Below are positions 21,295 through 22,380 of a stretch of 64,000 bases of DNA, in pieces. Position 1 is the stretch's first letter. Each line of letters starts with the position of its first letter. The stretch comes from Escherichia phage Elenatom. The stretch lies in the sequence record PP925844.1, one strand, 5' to 3'. The notes under the pieces are model-generated. The model did not search any database. It had not been told where the DNA came from and saw only the letters and a list, made by a program, of their open reading frames with translations. A program made the position numbers and the translations under genes.

Positions 21295-21816
21295 TTATCC
21301 TTTCATTGAAGGTGTAACAGTTGTTAAATACTTAATCATAGCTTCAGCTTCTGATTTTGATAATGAAATTTCTTCATTGTTTTGACGAATAGAAATAAAA
21401 TCCGGATGACGGTCACCACCAGCTTTTAAAACACACATATAAGTATCAGTTTCATCTTCAATATCTGAAATGATTGAAGCAGTTCCACATGAATGTGGTT
21501 TTTGATAAATCAATACAGCTTTTCTTCCACCGTTTGACTGTTCATAAACTTTTAACACATCAAACAAATCGCTTCTTTTATCAATAGCTAAGATGTTGTT
21601 TTCATCTTCAATATTAAATCCTTCGGATACTTCATAAAGTGTCACCCATAAATCACCAATATCAATAACAGTGTTCACTTTTCCATGACTTTCAAGAGCA
21701 TTACAAATTTTCTTAATTTCATCATAACTCATTTTAATAATATCATCTCCTTGAATAAGGAAGATGTCATTTTTAAATTCAACACGAATTAAACCACTTC
21801 CACTTGAAATAAACAT
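21295..21816 (-). CDS. Hypothetical protein, paralog of adjacent gene
   Basis: 173-aa ORF; C-terminal SKSEAEAMIKYLTTVTPSM resembles neighbour. Confidence 0.5.
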   Translation of the reverse strand: MFISSGSGLIRVEFKNDIFLIQGDDIIKMSYDEIKKICNALESHGKVNTVIDIGDLWVTLYEVSEGFNIEDENNILAIDKRSDLFDVLKVYEQSNGGRKAVLIYQKPHSCGTASIISDIEDETDTYMCVLKAGGDRHPDFISIRQNNEEISLSKSEAEAMIKYLTTVTPSMKG

Positions 21817-21822
21817 ATTTCC

Positions 21823-22380
21823 TCACTTTGAAATCATAGTTGGAATGACAGAATCGAGATAAGTCTTTAGCGCAATAGCTTCGTCTTTGGTAAATGTGAC
21901 AATATACGATCGAAAATCATCAATTTGACGAATAGTTAAGACATCACCATCTTCATAGCATTTTGATACGTTTAAAACAGTTTCATCATTCTGATTGCAA
22001 GCGTTAGTAATAATAGCATTGCAATTTTTGAGCCATTTTAAACTATGTTTTCTTTCATTAGAATAATAAAAATATTTAATCTTATCTATAAAACTATCCC
22101 AATGGATAACTGATAAACACATTGACTCACTTTTAATATTAAATCCTGGGCATGAAGAATAAAAATGAATTTTGTGCTCATCATTGATGCTTACTATTTT
22201 ATCAGTATAAGGATATTCAATTTGGGTTAAATGAATGATTTCACTAGGCGTAAAATATAGCATATCGTCTTCTTGTGTCAAACGATACATATTATTTACT
22301 TTTTCTATAGCTAATTCACCAAAAAGCGGACTAACTTCTAATACTAATCGTTTCATATTGATTCTCTTCGACTCACCCAC
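21823..22380 (-). CDS. Hypothetical protein, paralog of adjacent gene
   Basis: 185-aa ORF; C-terminal TKDEAIALKTYLDSVIPTM. Confidence 0.5.
   Translation of the reverse strand: MGESKRINMKRLVLEVSPLFGELAIEKVNNMYRLTQEDDMLYFTPSEIIHLTQIEYPYTDKIVSINDEHKIHFYSSCPGFNIKSESMCLSVIHWDSFIDKIKYFYYSNERKHSLKWLKNCNAIITNACNQNDETVLNVSKCYEDGDVLTIRQIDDFRSYIVTFTKDEAIALKTYLDSVIPTMISK

Follow-up and report, generated by a model that had tools for sequence, protein, structure and literature searches.

Two adjacent genes of Escherichia phage Elenatom, located at positions 21295 to 21816 (173 aa, ATG start) and 21823 to 22380 (185 aa, GTG start) on the minus strand of the 64-kb stretch of DNA that was analyzed (the window), are essentially certain, on sequence comparison, to encode full-length paralogs of the MobD.1 (y05I) family. 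BLASTP aligned residues 3 to 171 of the 173-aa protein with residues 16 to 182 of the 185-aa protein (27% identity; E = 2e-9). In the DNA, short in-register matches between the two genes persist at the gene-length spacing of 525 to 545 nt. Both proteins contain the same two Pfam domains. The N-terminal domain, T4_y05I_N (PF24449), covers residues 12 to 108 of the 185-aa protein (22057-22347, minus strand; E = 3.6e-39; 133.8 bits) and residues 2 to 95 of the 173-aa protein (21532-21813, minus strand; E = 1.8e-34; 118.7 bits), with a gathering threshold of 24.9 bits. The C-terminal domain, T4_y05I_C (PF24448), covers residues 113 to 182 (21835-22044, minus strand; E = 1.4e-20; 73.8 bits) and 102 to 171 (21304-21513, minus strand; E = 2.2e-23; 82.8 bits), respectively, with a gathering threshold of 27 bits. 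Both proteins also matched PHROG 1502 (E = 1.2e-66 for the 173-aa protein and 7.5e-81 for the 185-aa protein). The original prediction had described two adjacent genes of these sizes sharing a C-terminal block and differing elsewhere. Both ORFs and the quoted blocks were found, but the extent of the relationship was understated, since homology spans nearly the whole length of the proteins and each contains both domains. The pairwise alignment suggested there as a check detected similarity far beyond chance, so the outcome named as refuting it did not occur.

The 185-aa gene starts with a GTG located 9 nt after the sequence AAGGAG and is the ortholog of T4 mobD.1 (UniProt y05I; PF24449 plus PF24448; PHROG 1502). 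Translation from an alternative in-frame ATG at 22355 would yield the 177-aa form found in many databases. The 185-aa gene ends within the Shine-Dalgarno sequence of the 173-aa gene. For the 173-aa gene, the dN/dS ratio (Nei-Gojobori method, 5 to 7 Tequatrovirus genomes) was 0.15; the 185-aa gene had a ratio of 0.24, and the membrane protein gene located downstream of the pair had one of 0.18. Judged by these ratios, all three are real genes kept by purifying selection. Chance similarity, or a spurious ORF in one of the two positions, has a negligible probability. The low identity (27%) is the sole point in favor of such an explanation, which is refuted by the BLASTP alignment, by the Pfam matches (put at E < 1e-20 for both domains in both proteins), and by the dN/dS range of 0.15 to 0.24; the good Shine-Dalgarno sequences and tight packing of both genes also speak against it.

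Genomic context and candidate transcription signals

Elenatom is a T4-like phage belonging to the genus Tequatrovirus. On the minus strand, the gene order is tk (24339-24920), rI.1, rI (23778-24071), rI.-1, small genes resembling mobD.5, mobD.4, mobD.3, and mobD.2a, a 42-aa ORF, the 185-aa ORF, the 173-aa ORF, a gene for a 153-aa predicted membrane protein, nrdC.11, and nrdC.10. This T4-like order bears out the location of the pair in the plastic nrdC-rI segment, as originally proposed. Both genes lie where members of the MobD.1 family are expected in a Tevenvirinae genome, i.e., between mobD.2-like small genes and nrdC.11.

The membrane protein gene (20831-21292, minus strand; PHROG 944 "membrane protein," E = 2.1e-49) begins 2 nt after the stop codon of the 173-aa gene. 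The last gene of this conserved three-gene arrangement, nrdC.11 (19821-20834, minus strand), encodes, according to Pfam (PF10127; E = 2.1e-11) and to the T4 annotation, a nucleotidyltransferase of the RlaP "RNA repair pathway" family. The product of nrdC.10 (18738-19718, minus strand) gave matches to AAA and STAND NTPase families, all of them below threshold.

Upstream of the pair, a consensus match defines a candidate early sigma-70-like promoter (TTTACA-17-TATAGT with the TG of an extended -10 element; 22516-22544, minus strand), although the total count of promoter-like matches in the region was not above the shuffled expectation. A terminator-like hairpin followed by a T run, also a consensus match, lies after nrdC.11 (19800-19819, minus strand) and is the probable end of the transcription unit. 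Another terminator-like hairpin was identified at 23390-23373 by consensus match only. No RNA family was detected in the region. Elsewhere in the window, ten tRNA genes are clustered on the minus strand at 35848-36862.

The small genes located just upstream of the pair form a second tandem paralog cluster. Three consecutive minus-strand genes of the mobD.2a/3/4 type, at 22548-22721 (57 aa), 22711-22905 (64 aa), and 22908-23147 (79 aa), all matched Pfam DUF7438 (E = 1e-16 to 1e-18). Phages SP21535, T6, and RB14 have an extra DUF7438 gene together with a gene encoding a "Phage_tudor" domain between mobD.2 and mobD.1 (compared segments 2025-2478, 497-950, and 507-960, respectively), both of which are absent from the Elenatom window.

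Family identity and distribution

The 185-aa protein is about 85 to 90% identical to T4 MobD.1 (88% in the N-terminal domain and 83% in the C-terminal domain), and its gene has the same position, adjoining mobD.2. The 173-aa protein is likewise built of these two domains, but it is only about 25 to 33% identical to T4 MobD.1. BLASTP, Pfam, and the annotation of phage RB14 assign it to a divergent paralog of the RB32ORF097c type. The RB14 annotation describes this gene as "RB32ORF097c, similar to mobD.1" and the 153-aa gene as "RB32ORF096c ... replaces mobD." RB32ORF097c/RB14ORF98 and RB32ORF096c are the same genes as those at 21295-21816 and 20831-21292, with 93 to 95% protein identity and the same order. 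Because the RB14 and RB32 annotation names the 173-aa type as similar to mobD.1, the paralogy is already on public record. The pair is thus known: the GenBank annotation of RB14 and RB32 points out the paralogy, and a single family accommodates both proteins in Pfam as well as in PHROGs.

The 1.8 kb surrounding the pair matched 498 phage records altogether and is at least 99% identical to 29 of them, with Escherichia and Yersinia phages among those listed. In tblastn searches, the 173-aa type was found at 90% identity or above in about 430 phage records, including those of T6, RB14, and RB32; T2 has a version with 56% identity. For the entire MobD.1 family, the number of phage records is 728. 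When 1.84 billion representative proteins were searched exhaustively with an HMMER profile, the whole family came to only 28 clusters at 50% identity. A handful of these clusters are full-length; most of the others consist of the C-terminal domain alone (67 to 87 aa), and a few are short fragments. As sampled by these searches, the family is confined to Tevenvirinae phages of enterobacteria. The stand-alone T4_y05I_C proteins (about 70 aa; PHROG 7763; weakly related to Pfam DUF7189) are found in Tegunavirus and in T4-like phages of Serratia and Erwinia. They have the C-terminal module and its TKxEAxALxxYLNSVIPTM helix in common with the Elenatom pair but lack the two-module N-terminal domain. 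In one genome examined, that of Tegunavirus fHe-Yen9-01, the stand-alone gene is located upstream of the membrane protein gene.

The 175-aa product of T4 nrdC.8, examined as a possible third member of the family, was dismissed, since it gave no Pfam match and no meaningful alignment. Several public records of the region carry propagated annotation errors. MobD.x proteins are misnamed [quoted passage not shown] nrdC.11 is misnamed "thioredoxin," and a small neighboring ORF is misnamed "helicase loader." In the T6 record, mobD.1 is misnamed "integrase and recombinase" and the membrane protein is misnamed "prohead core protein."

The locus in other phages

In Mosigvirus, Gaprivervirus, and Tegunavirus, a single MobD.1-family gene, which in Tegunavirus encodes a 74-aa C-domain protein, lies immediately upstream of a homologous membrane protein gene of about 150 codons, and nrdC.11 comes next, either directly or past one intervening gene. 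The order of family gene, membrane protein gene, and nrdC.11 is therefore conserved in four genera. The Elenatom membrane protein is 31% identical to the syntenic Tegunavirus protein (E = 4e-19). The comparison of copy number across relatives, which had also been suggested, revealed two copies of the family in Tequatrovirus only, where the pair is common.

T4 has no 173-aa copy and carries the mobD endonuclease gene in its place. Homology between T4 and Elenatom stops at window position 20835 and restarts at 21798. Directly after T4 mobD.1, the Shine-Dalgarno sequence and first six codons (MFISSG) of the 173-aa gene persist (T4 segment at about 12259-12283, corresponding to window positions 21798-21822), after which a sequence containing the HNH homing endonuclease gene mobD takes over. 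In this alignment, the stub marks the boundary at which the mobD-bearing segment replaced the paralog and the membrane protein gene. The six-codon stub therefore shows that T4 derives from a two-copy ancestor and has lost the second copy together with the membrane protein gene where mobD now sits.

Further rearrangements affect the pair in other relatives. Shigella phage SP21535 (2480-3019) contains a single in-frame hybrid composed of nucleotides 25 to 403 of the 185-aa gene and nucleotides 361 to 520 of the 173-aa gene, i.e., an N-terminal domain of the 185-aa (mobD.1) type joined to a C-terminal domain of the 173-aa type. The blastn break points coincide with a 10-nt microhomology, GATGAAACTG, present on the minus strand at 21978-21987 in the 185-aa gene, on one side of the deletion junction, and at 21447-21456 in the 173-aa gene, on the other side of the junction. 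On this evidence, the hybrid arose when about 520 bp were deleted at the 10-nt microhomology between the tandem paralogs. Shigella phage SHBML-50-1 (952-1494) has a divergent mobD.1 allele, with 47% identity overall. The last ca. 45 residues of its product are nearly identical to those of the Elenatom protein, the N-terminal part is divergent, and the neighboring 173-aa gene is 98% identical. We read this allele as an intragenic mosaic. The SP21535 hybrid and the SHBML-50-1 mosaic show, at the level of sequence, that the two domains are interchangeable in nature.

The family is also subject to recurrent pseudogene decay, as seen from the reading frames of RB14 and T2. In RB14, mobD.1, the upstream copy, which is intact in Elenatom, is frameshifted (compared segment 962-1494). 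In T2, a truncated mobD.1 of 97 aa is accompanied by a second copy broken up into two ORFs (compared segment 2052-3019). Viable genome-reduced T4 mutants had lost the nrdC.11-mobD.3 fragment (PMC9825161). Together with the disrupted copies of T2 and RB14 and the loss of the second copy in T4, this indicates that all three genes are dispensable in culture.

Origin of the second copy

In a neighbor-joining tree, the clade of the 173-aa type branched outside the clade formed by the mobD.1 orthologs of Tequatrovirus, Mosigvirus, and Gaprivervirus. This topology fits an old duplication followed by loss or acceleration; acquisition of a divergent allele would account for it just as well. The original prediction of an old tandem duplication thus holds for the existence of true, tandemly arranged, anciently diverged paralogs; duplication in situ is indistinguishable from acquisition of a divergent allele. 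According to the latter explanation, which we consider possible but on the unlikely side, the second copy would be a divergent allele recombined in from another T4-like phage, and the members of the tandem pair would be xenologs. Besides its position in the tree, the 173-aa type is equally distant from its 185-aa neighbor (25 to 30% identity) and from the homologs of other genera, and allele exchange and mosaics are known at the locus, as illustrated by SP21535 and SHBML-50-1. However, apart from derived fusions and pseudogenes, no phage was found with the 173-aa type as its only copy, and faster divergence after duplication accounts for the tree equally well.

Domain and module architecture

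The alignment-based AF2 model of the 185-aa protein had a mean pLDDT of 66, with values of 70 to 88 for residues 10 to 110 and of about 45 to 58 for the C-terminal domain, and was usable for the N-terminal domain only; alignment-free structure prediction afforded a useless model (pLDDT of 44). The AF2 model comprises three successive modules, each consisting of a small beta-sheet followed by a helix (beta-beta-beta-beta-alpha). The N-terminal domain contains two predicted beta4-alpha modules, and the C-terminal domain contributes the third, at low pLDDT. Profile comparison by hhalign revealed a match between modules 1 and 3 (Prob of 88 to 91%; E = 1e-6 to 3e-6; score of 30 to 32), in comparison to a maximum score of 12.8 for 120 column shuffles. 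The match persisted when module 3 was represented only by the stand-alone C-domain proteins. This profile similarity demonstrates that modules 1 and 3 are homologous. The same method detected no sequence similarity between module 2 and modules 1 or 3, and no further copy of any of the three modules emerged when all six-frame ORFs of the 64-kb window were scanned with HMMs.

The most conserved element among 23 family members is the C-terminal helix TKxEAxALxxYLxSVIPTM. The N-terminal domain evolves faster, and the C-terminal domain is conserved. The proteins are acidic, with pI values of 4.1 to 5.8 and net charges of -1 to -22 in 22 of the 23 family members.

Possible function of the pair

The function had been given as unknown in the original prediction, and our searches of databases and of the literature on mobD.1, y05I, and nrdC.11 found no functional study; NCBIfam gave no match for the pair. 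Our tentative proposal, to which we assign a probability of about 40%, is that the two proteins are small acidic accessory proteins, probably expressed early, which would have other proteins, and not nucleic acid, as their binding targets. Dimerization or docking would fall to the conserved C-terminal module and its hydrophobic terminal helix: each paralog would pair with itself or with the other, or attach to the membrane protein made from the same transcript. Target specificity would reside in the variable N-terminal domain, and a pair of paralogs would thereby provide two specificities. The role assigned to the C-terminal module is a conjecture because the pLDDT of the C-terminal domain in the model is about 45 to 58.

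The conserved gene order raises the question of whether the pair and the downstream membrane protein might form a functional unit at the inner membrane, acting, for example, in superinfection exclusion, in lysis timing (rI is nearby), or in anti-defense, with the C-terminal helix docking on the cytoplasmic tail of the membrane protein. Between 0 and 9 nt separate the family gene from the membrane protein gene immediately downstream in Tequatrovirus, Mosigvirus, Gaprivervirus, and Tegunavirus; the membrane proteins are homologous across these genera; the Tegunavirus partner consists of the C-domain alone; and the membrane protein gene and the adjacent paralog were lost together in T4. Nonetheless, T4 retains mobD.1 in the absence of the membrane partner, indicating that MobD.1 can persist alone, and conserved gene order in T4-like genomes often reflects history and not function. 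Such a unit is, in our estimation, quite improbable.

We favor a protein-binding accessory role over nucleic-acid binding, which is suggested by a different set of comparisons. A beta4-alpha module occurring three times over, as tentatively predicted for the pair, is reminiscent of Pur-alpha and of the "ssDNA-binding transcriptional regulator" fold class with Whirly, MRP1/MRP2, and PC4, and this resemblance is probably behind the "putative transcription factor" label of Pfam. In line with this label, the pair might consist of single-stranded nucleic-acid-binding regulators of the PUR/Whirly/PC4 class, although we regard this as doubtful. As in Pur-alpha, an intramolecular domain would be built from modules 1 and 2, with module 3 responsible for dimerization; the targets would be phage or host single-stranded DNA or RNA, possibly in conjunction with the neighboring RlaP-type nucleotidyltransferase, the "RNA repair pathway" assignment of which is in keeping with this idea. 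The predicted modules agree with those of Pur-alpha in number and order, but modules 1 and 2 are shorter (about 45 to 50 aa). The top PDB fold match was the Whirly-fold MRP1/MRP2 guide-RNA-binding protein (2gia_B; E = 0.017; probability of 0.44; TM score of 0.18 to 0.22). This match is not significant. Foldseek produced nothing at E = 0.001 or better against the PDB; against BFVD, it retrieved only family members and uncharacterized phage proteins. Comparison of module 3 with PUR repeats, the sequences of which were checked against PDB entries 8cht, 8chw, and 3k44, resulted in an hhalign score of 19.5 over 49 in-register columns (P = 0.0024). None of 200 column shuffles reached this score (maximum of 13.7), although such shuffles do not control for generic beta-hairpin-plus-helix patterns and the hhalign probability was just 12%. 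The PurA and Whirly Pfam models gave no signal at E values up to 10, hhalign against PC4 was negative, and sequence and profile searches of the PDB returned no matches. In addition, the family is uniformly acidic, unlike the known members of the class, which are basic. Acidity argues against nucleic-acid binding, even though a local basic surface could still bind. Because of the non-significant fold match, the weak profile match, and the acidity, membership in the PUR/Whirly class is only a lead, a fold of this type being weakly suggested by the model.

An account combining several of these elements appears very unlikely to us. The MobD.1 family would be a previously unrecognized, highly acidic phage version of the PUR/Whirly three-repeat fold, originating from internal duplication of a beta-hairpin-plus-helix module and acting as a nucleic-acid mimic or decoy or as a single-stranded nucleic-acid chaperone. 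The paralogs would heterodimerize via their C-terminal repeats and work with the adjacent membrane protein and the RlaP nucleotidyltransferase as a conserved accessory module, for example, in counter-defense.

Significance for T4-like phages

The same pair is present in hundreds of sequenced relatives, making its occurrence in Elenatom ordinary. The pair matters little alone and has a modest value as an illustration of how genes come and go in the plastic portion of T4-like genomes. One 1.6-kb stretch displays a duplication, the displacement of genes by a homing endonuclease gene, a fusion brought about by deletion at a microhomology, mosaic alleles, and repeated pseudogene formation. Testable leads for the uncharacterized T4 gene mobD.1 come from the arrangement in three modules, the acidic character, and the association with the membrane protein.
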